From the IMG/VR virus record IMGVR_UViG_3300020471_000006, positions 1 through 64,000 of that record: a stretch of 64,000 nt of DNA; one strand, given 5' to 3'. Both the position numbers and the translations under genes were made by a program. Shown here one piece after another: positions 1-49,622 of the stretch (positions are counted from its first letter, which is position 1; each line of letters opens with the position of its first letter). The notes beneath the pieces were generated by a model that had not been told where the DNA came from, did not search any database, and worked only from the letters and a program-made list of their open reading frames with translations. Source of the stretch: a virus. Its lineage: Duplodnaviria > Caudoviricetes.

Positions 1-122
1 TGCCCACTAATGTTACAACTGATCCCTCAGTTAAAGCCTTGCGTGAGTTGGCTTACTTACCAAAAGGAGAGATGGATCCCCATGAAGTACCCGATAGCGA
101 ACCACGTGTAGGTGCAAGATGA
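1..122 (+). CDS. 3' end of hypothetical protein (truncated by window start)
   Basis: Open frame from position 3 to TGA 120-122, overlapping the next ATG (ATGA). Confidence 0.6.
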
Positions 123-301
123 CTTTTCTATTTTTGTTATTCAAACCCTTACTATTCTTAATGGTAAGGAAGGTATTTAAAAAACAGATGAAAGTTTTCG
201 CTGTAGAGATGCTCGAAGATTTTGCTCAGTCCACAGATAACGATGTGGATGACCAACTCGTAGCCAGAGTCAAGAAGGCTATGAGATTGGGGGCGGTATA
301 A
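119..301 (+). CDS. small hypothetical protein with hydrophobic N-terminus
   Basis: 60 aa ORF coupled to the upstream stop. Confidence 0.65.
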
Positions 302-339: not shown

Positions 340-1179
340 ATGTCTCTATACGGTAGTACCGATAGTAATGCTAACAAAACCAAAGCTGGGATTGGTGTTG
401 CTTCGGATTCACAAACAAAAACAATAGTTTATATTGACGAAACAGAAGCAGCACTTGAGCAGAATAAGAAGCGAGGGTTGAATGCTCCTGGTTGGTGGTC
501 ATACTTCACTTATAACGATAGCTCAGGTAGAGCACGTCATAAAGCAGAGCAGATGGTGTTCATCGCTGGTGGTGAAGCAAACTCTGGAGAGACACAATCA
601 GACGATACACTCGCTGGTGACTTCCTTTCTACAGTTTCTATTGGTACACAACCTTCTGATGCATCGGTTGCTGCTACTAACACACAGAACTTCTCAGTTG
701 TTGTTACTCCAACAGGTGAAGCATCCGCAATTGATGGTGCTGCCAACGCTGGAAACACAGCAGGAAGAACTGCTGGTACATATACTGCAATAGCAGCAAC
801 AGGTGGTACTGGATCAGGTGCTACTGTTACTCTTGTAGTTGATGCTAACGGTGCTGCTACTCCTACACTAGTAAGTAAGGGTGGTGGATACACTGACAAT
901 GACACATTGACACTCAGCAGAACTGGTACATATGGTGGTGCTTCAGACGTTACAGTTAATGTAAATGGAGTAGGTGCTACAGCAACATATCAGTGGCAGG
1001 TCAGCACAGATGGTGTTAACTTCGCTGATGTTACAACTGGAACCAATGATACTACTGCTACATACACAACAGCAGCAACAGCCGCTGGTGACAATGGTAA
1101 CAAGTACAGATGTGTAGTTGGAACCTCACAGGGTGCAACTCCTGTGATCTCAAGTGCTGCCACATTAACAGTTACATAA
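340..1179 (+). CDS. virion structural protein with C-terminal Ig-like domain
   Basis: TQPSD...YQWQ...YRCVV...SSAATLTV Ig pattern; late promoter; GGAG RBS. Confidence 0.75.
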   Translation: MSLYGSTDSNANKTKAGIGVASDSQTKTIVYIDETEAALEQNKKRGLNAPGWWSYFTYNDSSGRARHKAEQMVFIAGGEANSGETQSDDTLAGDFLSTVSIGTQPSDASVAATNTQNFSVVVTPTGEASAIDGAANAGNTAGRTAGTYTAIAATGGTGSGATVTLVVDANGAATPTLVSKGGGYTDNDTLTLSRTGTYGGASDVTVNVNGVGATATYQWQVSTDGVNFADVTTGTNDTTATYTTAATAAGDNGNKYRCVVGTSQGATPVISSAATLTVT

Positions 1180-39301: not shown

Positions 39302-42300
39302 GTACTCTTCAACATATAGTGGTGATATGACCTCCTTTATCGGGGGTAAGATTGCTAGTGCTGCTGGTATGGCAAGAGATGAGGCAGACGCACAAGAGAA
39401 AGATAAACAAGCTGGTCTGAATGTTGCAAATAGTGGTAATTTATTCATTAAAGCATTAGGAAGTGAATTTGGTGGAGATTTATTTGCTAGGACAATAGGT
39501 GTTTTTAATCCAAAGCAATCTGCTGCACAAACTGATAGAGCTTCTAGTAAAGCAAAAAGATTTGCTGCAAATTTTCCCAGAACAGAAAAGAAGGAAGACC
39601 AAGACATAAAAAAGTCTAGTAGAGAAGTTGATCGTGCTAAGGATGAACTTTTAAGAGATGATGATCACATACCAGTAAAAGACGAAAAACTAAGGGATTA
39701 TGTCACTCGTGTCTTTGGTGTTGGTATAGATTCAAAATTAACACAAGTAGATGCTAGAGTATCTAAGGGTTTAGGTGTATTATCTGATATAAGACAATCA
39801 CATGAGACTAATATCAATCTCATGGTTGATCATAATGAGTTAATTGCAAGTAAACTTGATAAAATATTGGAATTGTATAGTGAACAATATCAATATCAGA
39901 AAGGGTTAAAAGATAAAGCAGAAGCAAGTAGGACGGAGAATGAGTTAGAAAGGAGAAAGGATTTATCGATAACTAGACGTTATGGTGCTCTTGATCCAAT
40001 GGGAGGAATGGGTGGAATGCTTTTTGGTGGGTTAACTGATAACCTTGTCAAAAGGTTAGTAAAACGTTTACTCGATAAGGCTAGAAAATCTAAACTTTTA
40101 ACTAAATCCCAAGCTAGTCTACTAGAGACAATTTTAACAAAATCATCTACTAGAGCAGCTACTGGTGCAACTGCAACTGCTGTTTTAAGAAAAGCAAGGA
40201 AAGATCTAGCATTAGAGTTTGCAACAGAACTAGCAGCAGAACGAGCTAGGACAAAGGCAATTGGTGAAAGTTTCTCAGCAGTAACTAGAAGTTCTGGAGC
40301 ACTAGACTCATTAGCATTAAAACCTAAAAAAGCAGTAAAAACTACTGCTCAAAATGCACTTAGGAAACTTAGTATAAAAGAATTAACACCGTTCCTTACG
40401 AAAGACTTTTTGGAAATGTTTCCAGGATCAACTCCATTAGATATGTTACAATCTATGGAAGGATTTTTGAAAATGGGTGGAGATTTTGGAGGTGGATCTG
40501 CTGGTGCTGATACAGTTATTAGACCTTTTAAGGAATCTGCTGTTGCAATGACTCAGAGTAGTAATCCAAAAATTGCAGATGCAGGTAGGGCTCTAATTAA
40601 TGAAATCCAACAGTTTGCTCCAGGTGCGATTTCTCTTGATGATTTAGTTATGGGTGCTGATGCTCTTAGAGTAAGTAAACCAGCTACTGAAGTATTAGGA
40701 GCTGGAACTCCTAAAATGGCGAAGGCATTATCAGGTTCTGTTGCTCAAACAGCAGGTAAGAAAATAGCAACTAAAACAGGTGCAAAAGCATTAGCAAAGA
40801 CTGGTAAGTTTGTACCTGGAGTTGGTACAATGATAGCTCTTGGAGAGGCAGGTTATAGATTGGGTGCAGGTGATACTACTGGTGCAATTTTAAGTTTATT
40901 GAGTGCTATACCTATTTTAGGATGGGGTGTTACTGCTCTTGATATTGGTAGAGATTTTGGATTCAATCCACTTGGGTTGCCACCTCCACCAGATCAAACC
41001 ATAAGTGCAGATCAGAGTAATCTTGGTGGTTATTATGAAGCTGGTACTTCTATGTTGACCGAACCAGGAGTTAAAGTACTACATGGTGATGAGAAAGTTC
41101 TTGGTGTGGATCCTGGAACTGGTATGACAACAGATCATATTCAAAATATTGGTGACAGCATAGTATCTGCTAGTGCTAAAATGGCACAGGATCTTGCTGT
41201 CAGTAGGGATGTCGCTAATTCAATTTCAAGTCTACCTTTTACTGTAAAGAGAGTAAATTATAGTAGTGGTATAAAGACTGGTCCAGTAAAATCTAGAAGT
41301 GATACACAAAGTATATTTGATGTACAAAGTGATATCAGTCAGTTTAAGAAAGAAGCTGAAACTGCTGTTGAAGATCCTAGAGAAGAGAAGGCTAATGAGG
41401 CGTTAGATCGAGAAGAAAAGCAAAATAGTCGTTGGTTCACTGACCCTAGAAGGCATCTTAATTTTGGTAATGGTGGTAATAGTTCTATATTATCAAATAG
41501 TCCTCTTTTAGCACAACAAGGAGATACAACTATACAATTTCATGGCAAACAAGGTAGAGATTTGTCTGGAGAACCAGGTGTTGATTTTAGTTATGGTGAT
41601 TATAGAAATAATTACAGTTTATTCGATGGTACAGTTATAGAAACAGGATTATTATATGGTAAAAATTATGGTAACGTAGTAGTAGTTAGAAGTACTGATC
41701 CTAGTTGCGGTAAGCAATTTGATGCTTTGTATGCACACTTCCCTGATGGTGGAATTTATGTTAAACCAGGAGATCGTGTGACAGGTGGTGCTATTCTTGG
41801 TAAGGTTGGGTTTGTGAGTGTAAGTAAGCCTGGAGTTCCAGAACTACAACCAAATAATGCTGGTAACATGTCAGGATGGCATACCAGTGTTGATTTCTTT
41901 GAACCTGATAGTGCTACACGTTATGCTAATGCAGATAAAATAATTAATTTAATTTTATCTTCTAATGGATTAAAACCTAATAATCTTCTACAAAAATTAG
42001 CAATTACACAAGTTGAGGCAATAGTTCCTAATTCAACAGATAGTATTGTTGAATATTATACTGGTGATCAGTCTCATCCAAATTGGGAACCATATTTACA
42101 TGATGGAGGAAACGAGCATGAACATTATGGATTTTCTTCTAAAGAAGAAAGGGATCGTGCAATGGCAATCCTAAGACAACATGGACTTATAGTTGATCCT
42201 GGTGGTGAACCTGGTGATCATACAGAAGGATCATTACATTATGAAGACAGAGCACTTGATGTTCAGTTTGGTCCTCATATGATAAGAGATGAACATCCAT

Positions 42301-42747: not shown

Positions 42748-45108
42748 ATGGCGAGGTATAGTAGCACAGTTAGTGGAGATTTAACTTCATTTGTACTAGG
42801 GAATCTAATAGATGCTGCTAGTATGGGTAAGGTTGAGAAAGCTCGTGCTCTGAGAGGTGGAGAGATTTCTGGAATGAAACCAGAAGATCTGATGCTCCGT
42901 CCTGGTGAATTTACTGCTCAAGCATTGAAATATAAGATGACTCCTAGATGGGCAAGGAGTCGTAGTTTTGGTAATAGATATCCAGATTATTTTGCTAAAA
43001 ATTTAAAGGGACAGAGTACACCATTTGCTAGTCCTATAAATCCAGAACCAACATTTGCTTCCATAAAGGAAAAGATGGTAGGGAATCCATTTCCTTACAT
43101 TGCAGCTCCATACAGAGAGCATCAAGTACAACCACAGACACCATTACTATCATCTGGTACTAAGAGGTATGAAAGTACTGTTTCAGAGAAGGAGAAACCT
43201 GTAGAGGTCAAGGATGAAAAACTTGGTGTATTCTTTGCTGCTATTGCAGAATCTTTAAACAGGACAGTATCTTCTATTGGTCAGAAACAGAGTCAGATTG
43301 AAGGTGAGATCTCTAGTGCTCAACAATCCAATCTTGCTATTGCTTCTGCATTAGAATATAGTAATGATCATATAGGATCTAAGTTAGATGCTATTGCTGA
43401 ACTATTAAATCAGCAAATGCAACTTGCTAAACAACAAGTTGATCAGTCAGAAACTGATGCTTCTGTCAAAGAATTTAGAGAGGAGGATGATCTCTCTGGT
43501 ACTGAGAGGTATGTTGATGTTGGAGAAAAGACTGAACCAATCAGACGTGCTAATGAGTTAGAGAATAATCTTGATGTTGATAATGATGAAATAGAAGACT
43601 TTGAGAAGGGTGGTATAGCAAGTGGTCCTGATAGCGGATACTTAGCTAGATTACACGGTGATGAACTGATTGTTCCATTAGATAATAATTACACACAGGG
43701 TCAACCAAGTGCTGTTGATGGAAAAGTTCGTAGTGTACCACAATACGAGACAGGTACTGGTGGTTTAACTCCGAAGACTCTTCCAATACCACAAACTCCA
43801 CCAACATCATCTCCATCATTCAATTTCTTTGCAAAGAATCAGTCAGAGCATGCAGGGACACCTAATGTATTGAATCTTCCTAAGACTGACACTAACGTTG
43901 CTGGTGAAGATTTAATGAAGGCTATGAAGTTACCGTTTGAGGTTGCTTCTTTGGGTATAATGCAAGCTACTGGTAATGCTGTCAGATCAATGCCAGGATT
44001 TAGTGAAATGAAAGGAACTGTTAGTTCTGTTATCAGTCCTGTTGCTCAAGCATTTAGTATTAAAGATACCATTAGTGGTAAAGTTAATAATTTATTAGAA
44101 AGTAAGTCACAACAGACTGAACGTAGGAATACTGAGATATACAAGAGAGAACAGAGTGAGAACAGACGTGCATGGTGGGATATATTTGGACTGTTTAGAG
44201 GTGGCGGTGGTGGTGATCGTTATGGTATTGGAGGTCCAGGTCTAAGTGGTGCTTCTAATCTACAGAACTTATATCATGGAACCAGTAATGCTAGAGCAGC
44301 TAAGATATTCTCTGGTGGATTTAAACCTAGCAATGCTCTGAGTTGGGCTGGTAGAGGTAAGTCATTCCTAACACCAGATTTCTGGAATGCTGCTCAGTAT
44401 GCTAGACCTGGTGCTACTGGTTTGAATCCTTTCAGTGTTAAGGGTCTTCCTAACACTGGTTTTGGTAATATGATGGGTAATAGAGGTCAGGTATTAAATG
44501 TACTACAACCTAGAGGTGCTGGTCTTAGATTGCCTGGTTGGTTGAAGGGTTTAGGTTTATCACCAGAGGTTGCTGTTAAACCTAACCAAGCAACTAAAGG
44601 AATGAATCTAGCTCAGAGATTATTGAGTGGTAAATATCCTAATAGTCCAACTGCTAATATGGTTAGAGGAATGATGACATCACCAGCAGGAGGTAGGGGT
44701 CTTGGTATGATGAGTAAGTTGTCACCATTCCTTCAGGGTGGTATGAGACTTGGATCAAAAGCACTTGGTATTGCAAGTTTCCTTACTGATTTTATATTCC
44801 CAGATCCAACTGCTCAATATGATCAGATGCATGGTCCAAATGCATACTATAATGATCCTAGATTTACTGGTGAGAGACCAGAGTGGGCTCCTCCATTATC
44901 CAGTAACAAAGCAGATATTGTTGACTTAGGATCTAAAGAACATGCTATGAGTAAATTTGGTAAGAAAGATATTGATCCAGCAATGATTACCCTTAATAGT
45001 ATGAATAATGCCAATTATAATCAGCCAAATGAATCAATATCTCATATTGATAATATGGGTGACTCTCAGGTCGATCAATACCAATTCGTTTATTCAGCAT
45101 TTAAGTAA
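42748..45108 (+). CDS. second gp29-like paralog with ADP-ribosyltransferase-like domain
   Basis: Shares MARYSST.SGD.TSF, VKDEKL, SKLD.I.EL, LHGDE with the upstream gene; YHGT motif. Confidence 0.65.
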   Translation: MARYSSTVSGDLTSFVLGNLIDAASMGKVEKARALRGGEISGMKPEDLMLRPGEFTAQALKYKMTPRWARSRSFGNRYPDYFAKNLKGQSTPFASPINPEPTFASIKEKMVGNPFPYIAAPYREHQVQPQTPLLSSGTKRYESTVSEKEKPVEVKDEKLGVFFAAIAESLNRTVSSIGQKQSQIEGEISSAQQSNLAIASALEYSNDHIGSKLDAIAELLNQQMQLAKQQVDQSETDASVKEFREEDDLSGTERYVDVGEKTEPIRRANELENNLDVDNDEIEDFEKGGIASGPDSGYLARLHGDELIVPLDNNYTQGQPSAVDGKVRSVPQYETGTGGLTPKTLPIPQTPPTSSPSFNFFAKNQSEHAGTPNVLNLPKTDTNVAGEDLMKAMKLPFEVASLGIMQATGNAVRSMPGFSEMKGTVSSVISPVAQAFSIKDTISGKVNNLLESKSQQTERRNTEIYKREQSENRRAWWDIFGLFRGGGGGDRYGIGGPGLSGASNLQNLYHGTSNARAAKIFSGGFKPSNALSWAGRGKSFLTPDFWNAAQYARPGATGLNPFSVKGLPNTGFGNMMGNRGQVLNVLQPRGAGLRLPGWLKGLGLSPEVAVKPNQATKGMNLAQRLLSGKYPNSPTANMVRGMMTSPAGGRGLGMMSKLSPFLQGGMRLGSKALGIASFLTDFIFPDPTAQYDQMHGPNAYYNDPRFTGERPEWAPPLSSNKADIVDLGSKEHAMSKFGKKDIDPAMITLNSMNNANYNQPNESISHIDNMGDSQVDQYQFVYSAFK

Positions 45109-46538
45109 TGAAAGCAGAAGATTTTACAATAAAAACTATTGAAATTAGAAGAGTTGGTGAAGACCATGCAATAGAACCTTATGCTATCTTAACTGATGTT
45201 GTTCTTGGATTTCAATATTACGAGGATATAACTACACCATCAATATCTGCTACGTTATTCATATCTGATAAGGCAGCAAATCTCCCTGCTTCTATGCCTA
45301 TACAAGGATTTGAGTTGGTTACTATGGAACTCACTGATAGGAATGGTAAAGATCATCAGTATGAGTTTCGTGTATGGAAAGTTGGTAATAGAGTTTCTAC
45401 AGAAAAAGGTCAAGGATATATTTTAGGTTTGATAAGTACAGCAGGATTAATTAATGAGGGCGTTAAAGTAAATGCACTATTGAAAGGTACAGCAAATACA
45501 ATAGTCAAAAAAGTATTACAAGATTATCTTAATATACCTGAAGCTAAGGTTAGGAGTGATGAAGCAACTAACATAATGAAGATATTCCCTGCTGGTAAGT
45601 CTCCATTTGCGGTTATTAGAGATTTGCAAGCTAAAGCGATTTCTAAAGATTCATTTGCTGCTAGTGGTAATAGTGCTACATCATCTATAGACATTGATGC
45701 TAGTGATTCAGTTACTGCAAGTTCTGATACAGCAGAAGATACTAAACAACTTAAGGGTAGTGCTGGATATTTCTTTTGGGAAACCGTAGATGGATTTAAT
45801 TTTAAAAGTATAGATTCAATGGCATCAAAAGATCCAAAGAAATTTGGTGGTAGTGAGCCTGTTGCAACATATGAATTTGCTCCAGCAATGATAGAACAAA
45901 CAGAAGCAATGGATCCATACAAGATACAAGAAGTCACCTTTGTATCTGAATTGGATATATTGAAAAAATTAAGAGAGGGTGCATACTCTGCCGAATGTAC
46001 GTTTTTCGACATAAATACTGGTGTTCTTACGGAGTATACCTATAAATTAAGTGAAAACTGGGACAAAATGGGTCATCTAGGTACTGCAACAAAGTTACCT
46101 TGGGGTCAAGAACAATTATCCCAGTATCCAACTAGACGATTATCCTCTGTCATTAACCACGAATTGTGGCATAATGGCACTGAAATTGCGTCAAATGAGT
46201 CTGAGGCAGATAGTGATGAACCAAGTGAAGTTACCGATAACCAGAAGCAATTTCTGGTACAATCTATAGCACGTGCTGGTTCATTGTTCAACCAGCGATT
46301 GATGATTTCGATTCCAGGTAACTTAGATCTCAGAGCAGGTCAAAAGATCACAGTTATGATACCAAACCAAATACCTGAAAAGGACAGGGAAGATCAAGGG
46401 GATTTCGACCCCGAACATAGCGGTGTGTATTTGATCAAAAAACTCAATCATCAATTTGACAGAATGAAGATGAGCGTTTATACTGTATTGGAACTTATTC
46501 GTGACTGTTATGGTTACGAAGACACAGCCACTAAGTAA
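45108..46538 (+). CDS. baseplate hub protein (gp27-like)
   Basis: YEDI..P, FFWET.DGFNFKS, I.GN..L.AG, SG.YLI..L.H. Confidence 0.75.
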   Translation: MKAEDFTIKTIEIRRVGEDHAIEPYAILTDVVLGFQYYEDITTPSISATLFISDKAANLPASMPIQGFELVTMELTDRNGKDHQYEFRVWKVGNRVSTEKGQGYILGLISTAGLINEGVKVNALLKGTANTIVKKVLQDYLNIPEAKVRSDEATNIMKIFPAGKSPFAVIRDLQAKAISKDSFAASGNSATSSIDIDASDSVTASSDTAEDTKQLKGSAGYFFWETVDGFNFKSIDSMASKDPKKFGGSEPVATYEFAPAMIEQTEAMDPYKIQEVTFVSELDILKKLREGAYSAECTFFDINTGVLTEYTYKLSENWDKMGHLGTATKLPWGQEQLSQYPTRRLSSVINHELWHNGTEIASNESEADSDEPSEVTDNQKQFLVQSIARAGSLFNQRLMISIPGNLDLRAGQKITVMIPNQIPEKDREDQGDFDPEHSGVYLIKKLNHQFDRMKMSVYTVLELIRDCYGYEDTATK

Positions 46539-46551
46539 AAGGTAAATTCAT

Positions 46552-46779
46552 ATGAAAAGTATAGAAGACCATATTAAAAAAGATCAGGAGATCTTACAAG
46601 ATCCTCAGACAAATCCTCAAATGCGTAGGCATGTTGAAGGTGAATTGCATGATCTAGAAGATTATGTTTCTCACCATGCAGCAGAGATAGCAGCAGGAGA
46701 TCACCATGACCCTAATACCATAGAACTATGGTGTGACCAGCATCCAGACGAGCCAGAGTGCTTAATTTATGACGACTAA
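46552..46779 (+). CDS. cp12: CP12 Calvin-cycle inhibitor (phage type)
   Basis: C-terminal ELWCDQHPDEPECLIYDD. Confidence 0.93.
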   Translation: MKSIEDHIKKDQEILQDPQTNPQMRRHVEGELHDLEDYVSHHAAEIAAGDHHDPNTIELWCDQHPDEPECLIYDD

Positions 46780-46781
46780 AC

Positions 46782-49622
46782 ATGGAAGGACTTAATCAAT
46801 TATATCCAATTCACCAAATTGGATCCGACGGGTTCGCCTGGTGGATCGGACAGGTTGAGTCGCCTATGCATTCTCAGGACGGCGAAGAGAATAAAGATCA
46901 GAAACGTTCTGGAAGATATAAAGTCAGGATTATAGGACATCATCCTAGATCATGTAATGCAGTAAAGAGTTCGGATTTACCATGGGCAATCACTATGATG
47001 CCTGTGACTACTCCGTATTCATCTGGTGCTGTGCGTTCAGCAACGCCACAGTTGGAGCCAGGTGATTGGGTTATAGGGTTCTTTTTAGACAAAGAACAGC
47101 AGCAACCTGTTATCATGGGATCTATTGGACAGGTCGCTAATTCTGGAACACCACCAGGAGAAGATCCTAATCCTGGAGAAGGTTGTAAGAGTCTTACAAC
47201 ATTTGTTGATGAAAATAAGAGACAACTAGATCAAGAAGTAAATGAAGTTGTTGAGTTTAGTGTTACTGATGCAGGTGTACCTTTAGATGGTACTAAATCT
47301 GAGGGAATTACTGATGGTGTTAATAATCTAACCATAGCAAAGTTTGCTGATGCATCGGAATCTAATAGAGCAGGTATCAACTTTACAGTTGAAGTTGCTG
47401 ATAAGTGTCCTGAGTTGCAGGGAAAGTTTAAACGTCTCTTAAGTGAGATGCTTCGTGATACTCAACAGAGTAATGGTCAGTTAGGAACATATGTTGTTAA
47501 CCAGTGGACTGGTCAGATTACTGACTATGTTGATATTGGTAGAAAATATGTAAATAAAGCTGTACTTATTATCAAGAAATTCATTGCTAAAGTTAAGGGA
47601 TTTGTATTAGAGAAGATTAAGAGAGTAGTTGATGATATTGTTAAAGCAATTCTATCACCAAGTGAAACTGGTAATAGATTGACTCCAGTGACAAAGTGGT
47701 TCAATAATATGTTATCAGATCTTGGATGTTCTATGGCAGATCTGGGATTGCGTTTAGAGAAGTTCTTAGAGGATCTTATCTTTGGTTATTTGTTTGATAT
47801 CTACAAAGCTGCTGCATGTCAAGTAGACAAGATGGTTAGTGGTATCCTTAATAAGATTCAGTCTTTGATGGAAGATTTACTATCCAGTATTCTTGGTCCT
47901 CTACAAGCTTTACTTGGTGCTATAGCATCACCACTCAATATGATTGGTGAAGCAATCAATTATGTATTGAATCTACTTGGTATCAAGTGTACTGGACCTG
48001 ACAGCAGATGTAATAAGGTCACTTCTGTAACTACTAAGTGTGAAACAGATAAGCGAGAGAATTTCTTAGACAGATTACTAGAAAGTCTACAAGATCCGTG
48101 GGACGGTGCTGGTGAGGATTGGGCTACCTATACATGTGAAGAAGCATATGAAGGTGTTAAGTTAAAGAACACTGAGGTTACATTTGTTGGTGGTAGACAA
48201 AAGACAGATGGATTGGAAGATAGGATAACATATAATATTAGTGACATACGTGTTAAGGAAGGTGATATAGCAAAGTTTGAAGTTATTAGAACTGGCAAGA
48301 CTGATATTGCTTCTAGTGTTTTCTGGAGAACTATAGAAGGTACGGCAGAGTATGTGACTGATTTTGAAGAAGGAAGTGGGACAGTAGGATTCTCTATAGG
48401 AGAAACGAAAAAGTTTATTGAAGTGAGAACACTTTATTCTGATGAGATAGAAGGTTCGGAAGATTTCTTTGTGTCATTGAGACCAGGAACTCCTGGTGTA
48501 GTCACTAGGTCATTTATCAGTAGTCTTGCTAGATGTGTTATTAACAAATCTAATATAGGATCTAGTTCAGATCCAAATGTAGATCTAGATGACACACCAC
48601 CTACTCCATCAAGGAATGCAAATGATCCTAATAATTTTGAATTTGGAGAAGTATTTGAATCACTAGCGAATGATAATGATAGTGATACTGTAGAGTCAAC
48701 ACCAGATGGACCAACTTATGCAGTGGAACCTAATAAGAGTTCTGTTGAAGAAGGTGAGTTTGTAACATATACTATAAAAACTACCAATGTTGATAGTGGT
48801 ACTGTATTGCAGTATCAATTATTTGGAGAGGGCATCACTAATTCTGATATTGTTGGTGGTCAGTTGAAAGGTCAGTGTGTTATTGAAGATAATAAATCCT
48901 TAGTTGTGGTTGGTATTGAAGATGATGCTACTATAGAAGGTGATGAGAGACTTATATTTGCTATAAATGGTACAGATGCTAGTGCTACTGTTCTTATTCA
49001 ATCTCAGTTAACAGATTTTGGTAGAGAAGATTTATTGAAAGAGTTAGATCAGTCTGAAGATATTGATAAGACCAATGTTTATACAAAAGCTACTAAACCA
49101 ACAGCAGGAGCACCTATAACAGATCCAAGTGGAGGTATCATACAAGTTCCTATAGAGAATCCTGGTACTGCATACACAGAACCACCTGCTGTCCTTATAA
49201 CAGGTCAAGGGTATGGTGCTGTTGGAATTGCTTTACTTGATAAAAATAGTCAGGTTTCAGAGATTAGGGTGACAAATCCTGGATTTGGGTATAAACTTAA
49301 TGCACCACAGACAGAGCAGAAACGTTGTATTATTGATAGTTTTACAATGTTAACACCTGGCACAGGATATACCAGTGCTCCTAGAGTCTATATTGATGGA
49401 GACTCAGATGTAGCAGAAGCTGTAGTTGAGAGGGGTATGGTTGTTAGTGTCAGAATTAAAAATAGAGAGAAGACATTCACTGAATATCCACGAGTCCAGA
49501 TCATTGGTGGTGGTGGGTATGGTGCAAGGTGGTTACCATCATTCAATTGCTTAAGTACCGAAGCACTTGTTAAAGTTGGATCTGCTAAGATTGGTACTGG
49601 TTCCTATATTGATTGTCCGTAA
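46782..49622 (+). CDS. gp5: gp5-like baseplate hub protein (OB fold, helical region, Calx-beta-like domains)
   Basis: WWIGQVE, GRYKVRI.G.H, DLPWA, V.GFFLD...QQPVIMGS. Confidence 0.85.
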   Translation: MEGLNQLYPIHQIGSDGFAWWIGQVESPMHSQDGEENKDQKRSGRYKVRIIGHHPRSCNAVKSSDLPWAITMMPVTTPYSSGAVRSATPQLEPGDWVIGFFLDKEQQQPVIMGSIGQVANSGTPPGEDPNPGEGCKSLTTFVDENKRQLDQEVNEVVEFSVTDAGVPLDGTKSEGITDGVNNLTIAKFADASESNRAGINFTVEVADKCPELQGKFKRLLSEMLRDTQQSNGQLGTYVVNQWTGQITDYVDIGRKYVNKAVLIIKKFIAKVKGFVLEKIKRVVDDIVKAILSPSETGNRLTPVTKWFNNMLSDLGCSMADLGLRLEKFLEDLIFGYLFDIYKAAACQVDKMVSGILNKIQSLMEDLLSSILGPLQALLGAIASPLNMIGEAINYVLNLLGIKCTGPDSRCNKVTSVTTKCETDKRENFLDRLLESLQDPWDGAGEDWATYTCEEAYEGVKLKNTEVTFVGGRQKTDGLEDRITYNISDIRVKEGDIAKFEVIRTGKTDIASSVFWRTIEGTAEYVTDFEEGSGTVGFSIGETKKFIEVRTLYSDEIEGSEDFFVSLRPGTPGVVTRSFISSLARCVINKSNIGSSSDPNVDLDDTPPTPSRNANDPNNFEFGEVFESLANDNDSDTVESTPDGPTYAVEPNKSSVEEGEFVTYTIKTTNVDSGTVLQYQLFGEGITNSDIVGGQLKGQCVIEDNKSLVVVGIEDDATIEGDERLIFAINGTDASATVLIQSQLTDFGREDLLKELDQSEDIDKTNVYTKATKPTAGAPITDPSGGIIQVPIENPGTAYTEPPAVLITGQGYGAVGIALLDKNSQVSEIRVTNPGFGYKLNAPQTEQKRCIIDSFTMLTPGTGYTSAPRVYIDGDSDVAEAVVERGMVVSVRIKNREKTFTEYPRVQIIGGGGYGARWLPSFNCLSTEALVKVGSAKIGTGSYIDCP

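Follow-up and report, generated by a model that had tools for sequence, protein, structure and literature searches.

Can a protein encoded in the tape-measure slot of a T4-like cyanophage carry an enzyme of the ADP-ribosyltransferase (ART) superfamily? The question is raised by an open reading frame (ORF) of 786 amino acids, P0001, located in positions 1 to 64,000 of the IMG/VR virus record IMGVR_UViG_3300020471_000006. This stretch of 64,000 nucleotides is referred to below as the window; the source record is a complete 202.5-kb virus genome, and its hub region is similar to that of T4-like Synechococcus and Prochlorococcus myoviruses (Kyanoviridae). Large fractions of the Synechococcus and Prochlorococcus populations fall victim to marine cyanomyoviruses, for which we know of no established effect on the cell before phage gene expression. 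The sequence comparisons support an assignment of residues ~505-650 of the carrier ORF as a predicted compact domain of the ART superfamily, belonging to the His-Tyr-Glu (H-Y-E) branch of PARP, diphtheria toxin (DT) and Tpt1, in which the site residues H510, F540, Y551 and E607 are kept.

Sequence relationships and predicted fold of residues 505-650

The core of the domain follows the order LYHGTS, GRGKSFLT, AAQYA and PEVAV in the translation of positions 42748-45108. A preliminary description of the locus, made from the letters alone, had quoted the strings LYHGTS, KIFSGGF, GRGKSFLTPDFWNAAQYA (holding F540 and Y551), GQVLNV and PEVAV, and all of them are present in that order. It had further proposed an H-Y-E ART pattern with Phe at the usual Tyr position and a late Glu at 44566. 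This proposal is borne out as an H-(F/Y)-Y-E signature with invariant site residues, in which F540 aligns with the PARP-type Tyr and E607 is encoded by the GAG codon beginning at that position. The four site residues are invariant in 19 homologues as well as in 23 full-length IMG/VR loci; one more locus is truncated at the His and reads -FYE. With a mean column identity of 0.86, compared to 0.69 for the entire protein, the core is the best-conserved stretch of the carrier. The region from residue 494 to 650 has a net charge of +15.

Searching residues 480-700 with phmmer against 1.84 billion representative proteins yielded 41 matches at E<=1e-3, and these include PARP-domain proteins. P0024 is matched at E 6e-11, a value summed over four repeats that are each weak alone, and itself matches Pfam PARP at 4.7e-36; P0058 likewise passes the Pfam PARP threshold (1.8e-6). 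Both proteins are matched via YHGTS..GF..GRG.YLS..A.RY, and F540 falls on their Tyr. P0024, a metagenomic protein of 571 amino acids, consists of four PARP-type catalytic domains in tandem, all of them bearing HGTS, GRGVYLS and LEEDCV, and forms a bridge from the motif in the window to PARP. The cyanophage clade aligns to these PARP repeats with a probability of 92.8% (hhalign). Among PDB sequences, the family profile reaches PARP10 and Tpt1 alone, at E about 0.3. At the level of curated models, Pfam PARP is weakly matched by 12 of 27 members and ART-PolyVal (PF18760) by three (best E 0.016), and nothing else matches consistently. When the PARP model was run over the six frames of the 202.5-kb genome, it matched positions 44254-44403 only (E 0.03, 10.7 bits, below the cut-off).

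Most of the other phmmer matches belong to a family without annotation in marine phages, whose proteins are 160-1070 amino acids in length and carry a compact domain of ~125 amino acids. The compact domain is recognized by the motifs YHGT, WAGxGKxF(T/S), A.RYG, GISFGxE and QATKGMNL..L.SG.YPNSPTA. Its profile aligns with that of the cyanophage clade at 99.6% probability (hhalign, E 2e-24), and the 112 aligned columns take in all four site residues. In both contigs examined, which derive from marine metagenome phages (L002:2900-5404 and L003:6523-7809), the compact-family gene lies just downstream of the large terminase gene, and in L002 it directly precedes an SU10-type portal. Such a terminase-portal context has been linked to packaged, injected ARTs in a survey of viral NAD (nicotinamide adenine dinucleotide) and ADP-ribose (ADPr) systems (PMC9503650).

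The ART-PolyVal threshold of 31.2 bits was missed by the family, the window copy giving no match to that model. Pfam, NCBIfam and PHROGs hold no family for the domain, and PHROGs is also empty for the compact family. Since no curated threshold was passed, the domain lies outside any existing Pfam family and would represent a compact ART family that is covered by none of the three collections.

Two further arrangements occur among the metagenomic matches. In P0049 and P0051, a hairpin of the form 'A.K..L....L..Y.TSPTA' precedes the YHGT core, which it otherwise follows, and Leu takes the place of the Glu; this layout may represent a permuted or a duplicated-and-decayed domain arrangement. P0032 and P0052, both about 900-1100 amino acids long, contain many weak tandem repeats, up to 14 by phmmer, that resemble the 'T.(H/G)LNL....LSGK(Y/R)P' hairpin of the domain.

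Structurally, the family was modelled with AlphaFold2 (AF2), using a compact member as target. The template-free model, based on the 60-sequence alignment A3, reached a predicted local distance difference test (pLDDT) score of 79.9 and a predicted template modelling (pTM) score of 0.74, and consists of the elements β-α-β-α-β3-β-α-α. Compared by VIA-align with 48,161 PDB representative chains, the best 50 matches are all ART-fold or ART-like (Z 5.6-3.0). They are led by diphtheria toxin (Z 5.6, root-mean-square deviation (rmsd) 3.1, 83 amino acids), KptA (Z 5.5, rmsd 2.5, 74 amino acids), tankyrase (Z 5.3) and PARP1 (Z 5.2), and further listed matches comprise ExoA, cholix, Scabin, ParT, DarT, pertussis toxin, LT, an ART-type anti-CRISPR and pseudo-PARPs. 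The best 50 Foldseek matches in the PDB are almost wholly ARTs of the same families, none with a significant E. In BFVD, the model retrieves phage proteins named 'PARP catalytic domain' and 'ADP-ribosyltransferase' with probabilities of 0.98-1.0, and in the ESM Atlas it retrieves PARP and PTS_2-RNA clusters together with small viral clusters at template modelling (TM) scores of 0.5-0.6. As VIA-align Z values under 8 can mirror common arrangements and the single values here are moderate, the fold assignment is carried by the uniform lists across the four libraries.

The positions of the site residues agree with this assignment. Model residues 1..101 align with PARP1 850..1002, and residues 5..101 with DT 13..162; site-residue equivalence with both enzymes follows from these VIA-align ranges rather than from a residue-level superposition. 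In these ranges H13, situated in strand 8-15 of the model, falls on PARP1 H862 and DT H21, and the aromatic pair is spaced by 10 residues compared to 11 in PARP1 and DT. E85, at the start of strand 85-88, lies 16 residues before the end of the alignment compared to 14, and is thereby within 2 residues of E988 and E148. Helices 90-104 and 112-120 of the model correspond to the KPNQATKGMNLAQRLLSGKYPNSPTANMVRG hairpin of the carrier. We predict with high confidence from the model that the compact family adopts the split β-sheet ART fold of the H-Y-E branch. The preliminary description had named the predicted fold as a check on its claim: for the compact homologue the fold is ART-like across the structure libraries, and for the window's own domain the model was unusable, as detailed below.

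Table 1 Coordinates of the carrier ORF, its domains and site residues, and the neighbouring genes in the window, with the shared motif of T4 gp29 for comparison.
Feature	Position	Strand	Remarks
Tail-tube-like ORF, 243 aa	37564..38295	+	Pfam Phage_TTP_2 1.6e-49; upstream of gp26; position kept in L004-L007
gp26-type T4_baseplate protein, PF12322	38406..39119	+	Pfam 1.4e-71; directly upstream of both paralogues
Upstream paralogue, 1150 aa	39294..42746	+	Peptidase_M23, Pfam 1.7e-7
GSKLD..LL.Q motif, upstream paralogue	39840-39900		
Carrier ORF P0001, 786 aa	42748..45108	+	Downstream member of the tandem paralogue pair that occupies the tape-measure slot in the baseplate-hub module
N-terminal module, residues 1-255	42748..43512	+	Common to the 786-aa ORF and the upstream 1150-aa ORF
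GSKLD..LL.Q motif, carrier	43369-43428		
Block GGIASGPDSGYLARLHGDELIVPLDNNYTQGQPSAVDG, residues 288-335	43609..43752	+	Highly conserved, mean column identity 0.84; invariant columns
Gly-rich linker, residues 484-504	44197..44259	+	Precedes the ART-like domain
ART-like core, residues 505-625	44260..44622	+	Strand 1 with YHGT, WAGRGKSF strand, AAQY helix, PEVAV strand
His510 codon	44275..44277	+	Predicted NAD-binding His of the H-Y-E triad; aligns with the HGT His of PARP10, Tpt1 and P0024
Phe540 codon	44365..44367	+	Canonical Tyr position, in G535-R-G-K-S-F540; aligns with the Tyr of GRGVYLS in P0024
Tyr551 codon	44398..44400	+	Second aromatic, in A548-A-Q-Y551-A; corresponds to PARP1 Y907 by spacing; invariant 60/60 (A3)
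Clade-specific insertion RPGATGLNPFSVKGLP..., residues 553-580	44404..44487	+	28 aa; not in the compact family (alignments A2, A3); conservation 0.86
Glu607 codon GAG	44566..44568	+	Predicted catalytic Glu, in P606-E607-V-A-V
Helical hairpin KPNQATKGMNLAQRLLSGKYPNSPTANMVRG, residues 612-650	44581..44697	+	Kept in all three clades, also in those without His and Glu
'Tail protein', 476 aa, phrog_350	45108..46538	+	Directly downstream of the carrier ORF
CP12 gene	46552..46779		After the phrog_350 tail protein
gp5-like hub/lysozyme gene	46782..49622		After CP12
GSKLD..LL.Q motif, T4 gp29	residues 100-118 (L008:6879-8651)		

The carrier gene and its place in the hub module

The carrier shares its N-terminal module with the 1150-amino-acid protein encoded directly upstream (29% identity, E 5e-15, BLASTP), and the C-terminal halves of the two proteins differ; the genes are therefore tandem paralogues. 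The LHGDE core of the conserved GGIASGPDSGYLARLHGDELIVPLDNNYTQGQPSAVDG block was also found in the 1150-amino-acid paralogue by a regular-expression search. The sole family match of the carrier is phrog_10925, a family of unknown function, over residues 161-505. Pfam and NCBIfam searches with the 786-amino-acid ORF gave no match, and neither did a PDB sequence search with the whole protein as query. Because a hydropathy scan of the protein peaked at 1.1 and contained no transmembrane-grade segment, we make no claim of a membrane channel.

Tape-measure genes are normally preceded by tail chaperone genes. In the window, gp26, which we take to be the tail assembly chaperone, is followed directly by both paralogues (Table 1), and this order of gp26 and two paralogues is repeated in S-CAM3 and in metagenomic cyanomyoviruses (L004-L007). 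A 386-amino-acid baseplate-hub protein (phrog_4540), encoded after the gp5-like gene, is a further member of the local hub module. Both paralogues and T4 gp29 carry the GSKLD..LL.Q motif, in full (I/L)(G/A)SKLD(A/K)(I/L)..L(L/Y).(Q/E)Q, at a similar N-terminal position, which provides a mere hint of a possible common origin. Gene position, size and this motif suggest that the 786-amino-acid protein is a tape-measure protein. The preliminary description had called the carrier a hub or tape-measure paralog, and the part of this claim that stands is its membership in the tandem paralogue pair of the tape-measure slot.

Based on these observations, we consider the chances evenly divided on whether the domain is an NAD-dependent transferase that is delivered by a tape-measure-like protein and possibly acts on a nucleic-acid target. 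According to this proposal, the carrier protein would be built into the tail lumen and, upon tail contraction, would leave ahead of the DNA, after which the domain would use host NAD+ and ADP-ribosylate an early target. Because of the strongly basic surface, a nucleic acid or a nucleic-acid-bound protein would be no less likely to be the target than a free protein. NAD use, target, virion location, entry into the cytoplasm and the folding of the window copy are what we infer in this proposal. The window copy may be active, a reading favoured by the intact His/aromatic/Tyr/Glu set, by the strong conservation and by the contrast with clades in which His and Glu are replaced. If active, the domain may allow the phage to deliver an NAD-using enzyme through the tail at the start of infection.

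Active-site states among relatives and competing explanations

The 60 sequences of alignment A3 fall into a small number of states at the four site positions: H-F-Y-E in 33, H-Y-Y-E in 8, T-Y-Y-Q in 14, H-Y-Y-A in 3 and others in 2. A total of 41 sequences retain both His and Glu and 14 have neither, while His occurs without Glu in three and Glu without His in one, so that Glu is present in 42 in total; these states represent few clades and not independent events, and no statistical weight is placed on the pattern. A split into sequences that keep or lose both residues together is what would be expected for active enzymes and their pseudoenzyme relatives.

The same states are observed in the tape-measure slot itself, where 11 IMG/VR loci with T-Y-Y-Q and 5 with H-Y-Y-A stand beside the H-F-Y-E loci described above. 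The degenerate orthologues (L004:8001-10385, L006:7281-9518 and the 16 IMG/VR loci L035-L050) are embedded in the gene order gp26, M23 protein, carrier, 470-amino-acid tail protein, CP12 and gp5. Their motifs read GFTGM, GRG-AYSAP and EPQ in the T-Y-Y-Q clade, and HGT and G.G-VY, with no Glu, in the H-Y-Y-A clade.

S-CAM3 has a further arrangement. Its gene BOW87_gp010 (NC_031906; L001:7407-10094) shares residues 163-447 of the window ORF at 30% identity. After a Gly-rich linker, it continues into an unrelated C-terminal module (…KESGNSYTKLVGG…FAMGRYQIQ…) that is lysozyme-like by eye only. The C-terminal module therefore seems exchangeable between cyanophage lineages.

Several observations weigh against an active, tail-delivered transferase. 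The window copy misses the Pfam PARP (PF00644) threshold, with 11.1 bits (E 0.29, residues 495-650) compared to 26.7, and covers profile positions 47-100 only. AF2 applied to the window's own domain, which is Gly-rich and carries the 28-residue insertion, gave a pLDDT of 38.6 with the 27 sequences of alignment A2; the ART fold of this copy is therefore assigned through its hhalign homology to the modelled compact family. The structural scores are moderate throughout (Z <= 5.6; Foldseek PDB E >= 0.2). With regard to the carrier, the comparison of alignment A1 with T4 gp29 did not reach significance (hhalign probability 8%, E 0.004, 49 columns around GSKLD..LL.Q). Its presence in the virion is putative, and its delivery through the tail is proposed from the gene slot and the M23-bearing paralogue. 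The T-Y-Y-Q and H-Y-Y-A orthologues occupy the identical slot in other cyanomyoviruses, each state being conserved within its clade, and the S-CAM3 orthologue is without the domain (no match to the domain profile and no Pfam match). As orthologues in this slot have His and Glu replaced or lack the domain altogether, catalysis is not what keeps the domain in the protein family. Furthermore, Phe540 replaces the canonical first Tyr, a residue that the degenerate clades share with the 8 H-Y-Y-E relatives, and the genome contains no Macro or ARH (ADP-ribosylglycohydrolase) partner gene. Taken together with the poor model, the small and diverged C-terminal half, the Phe at the Tyr position and the tolerance of the carrier for an inactive-looking or absent domain argue against predicted activity of the window copy.

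A possible, if rather doubtful, explanation is that the ART fold serves as a structural or binding pseudoenzyme, for instance in tube packing, hub plugging, or DNA or envelope binding, the intact residues being an ancestral remnant or used for ligand binding only. The conservation of the T-Y-Y-Q and H-Y-Y-A states in the same slot would be in line with such a role, and so would the Phe in place of the canonical Tyr. Moreover, what all clades have in common is not the catalytic residues but the C-terminal hairpin (ATKG..L..G.Y.NSP.A) and the FPDPTAQYDQ..GPNAY block that follows it. A net charge of +14 to +18 is also retained in the degenerate clades and would fit well with DNA or with a tube lumen that is acidic. 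On the other hand, most family members retain both His and Glu, and in the H-F-Y-E clade conservation is equally strong in the N-terminal, NAD-binding half and in the remainder. It is exactly this His-bearing half in which the degenerate clade has diverged most, leaving only 61 C-terminal columns over which the two cyanophage clades align (hhalign), and E607 is the only Glu within residues 494-650.

It is considerably less probable that the domain, although an active NAD-using enzyme, has no effector role in the host cytoplasm and acts instead in assembly or self-modification (on a tail or hub protein or a DNA end), as an NADase, or as a Tpt1-like phosphate ADP-ribosylase. KptA/Tpt1 is found among the best structural and sequence matches, and the domain is strongly basic. 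The C-terminal part of a tape measure may end in the periplasm, as in T5 Pb2-type proteins, where NAD is scarce. In addition, the release of ADPr and the attack on phosphate groups are further reactions open to enzymes of the ART superfamily (PMC9503650). However, the domain has neither the RNA-binding lobe of Tpt1 nor its catalytic Arg/His tetrad, the gene neighbourhood gives no sign of RNA repair, and the compact relatives sit between terminase and portal, a context tied to packaged and injected ARTs (PMC9503650).

A chance resemblance, arising in a tape-measure-like protein within a part that is rich in Gly and Asn and largely unstructured, is very improbable: the low pLDDT of the own-stretch model, the failure of any curated family to pass its threshold and an ESM Atlas feature search of residues 495-650 that gave no usable match would agree with it, but the stretch shows the highest conservation in the protein, has significant database-wide matches to PARP-domain proteins, and matches at 99.6% a family for which a confident model finds ART folds in each of four independent structure libraries.

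Returning to the tail-delivered transferase, we tentatively postulate a wider scheme that we regard as possible but on balance doubtful. In T4-like cyanophages, the tape-measure slot would serve as a second, tail-borne route of enzyme delivery, combining the M23 paralogue, with its cell-wall peptidase, with an active mini-ART of a new family that precedes the DNA into the cell and ADP-ribosylates host nucleic acid or a DNA/RNA-bound protein. In sister lineages, the enzyme would have been inactivated (T-Y-Y-Q, H-Y-Y-A) or its module exchanged for another (S-CAM3), which would constitute a polymorphic-effector system within a tail protein, and the same mini-ART would be employed in the head modules of unrelated marine phages. 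The natural series of clades with intact (H-F-Y-E) or substituted (T-Y-Y-Q, H-Y-Y-A) site residues or with no domain (S-CAM3) offers a ready comparison on whether catalysis matters. If the domain is inactive, it would still clearly exemplify the recruitment of an enzyme fold into the phage tail as a structural component.

Comparison with known ADP-ribosyltransferases and enzyme-bearing tape measures

With ARTs of the PARP and diphtheria-toxin type (PF00644, PF09009), the phage domain shares the HG[ST] motif on strand 1, a G-x-G-x-aromatic strand, a second Tyr about 10-11 residues further on and a Glu that starts a late strand. These enzymes are among the best structural matches, and local sequence similarity extends over about 47 columns. 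In contrast to their catalytic core of about 200 residues, the phage core comprises about 100, with a diverged C-terminal half and fewer strands; it also has Phe for the first Tyr and two family-specific extra helices. The NAD-binding lobe of Tpt1/KptA (PF01885) resembles the domain in its (V/L)LYHGT motif, its compact ART lobe and its basic character. Unlike Tpt1/KptA, the phage domain lacks both the N-terminal RNA lobe and the Arg-His-Arg-Arg catalytic tetrad, and its genomic context is a different one.

Head-packaged ARTs are established or widely inferred for T4 Alt, MuF/portal fusions and polyvalent proteins (PMC5512222, PMC9503650). ART-PolyVal and the phage ARTs fused to MuF or portal proteins (PF18760) share with the carrier the embedding of an ART in a large virion-associated protein that is presumed to be delivered at infection. 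Those proteins are packaged in the head, whereas the carrier is encoded in the tail tape-measure slot. The compact relatives, located between terminase and portal, are placed like many of the phage ARTs surveyed (PMC9503650). Our literature search found no report of an ART module in a tape-measure or tape-measure-slot protein and likewise none of an ART in T4-like cyanophages; the survey text in PMC9503650 contains no tape-measure or cyanophage case of an ART.

The likeness to T4 Alt, drawn in the preliminary description, is one of concept only, namely a virion-borne ART that acts before phage gene expression. As an analogy of delivery it is retained; Alt itself is an R-S-E (VIP2-like) ART packaged in the head, in contrast to the H-Y-E type of the domain. 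A relation to Alt and the VIP2 type was rejected, as hhalign of A3 against Alt gave a probability of 0.2%.

Tape measures with embedded enzymes include T5 Pb2, with an M23-type peptidase, and that of mycobacteriophage TM4, with an Rpf-like motif. The carrier resembles them as a long tail protein that is encoded just after the chaperone and bears a catalytic-type C-terminal module, and its sister gene has an M23 domain. In contrast to the carrier's ART-like module, the known embedded modules act on the cell wall. If the proposed function is true, an ART within a tape-measure-type tail protein would constitute a delivery route different from head packaging.

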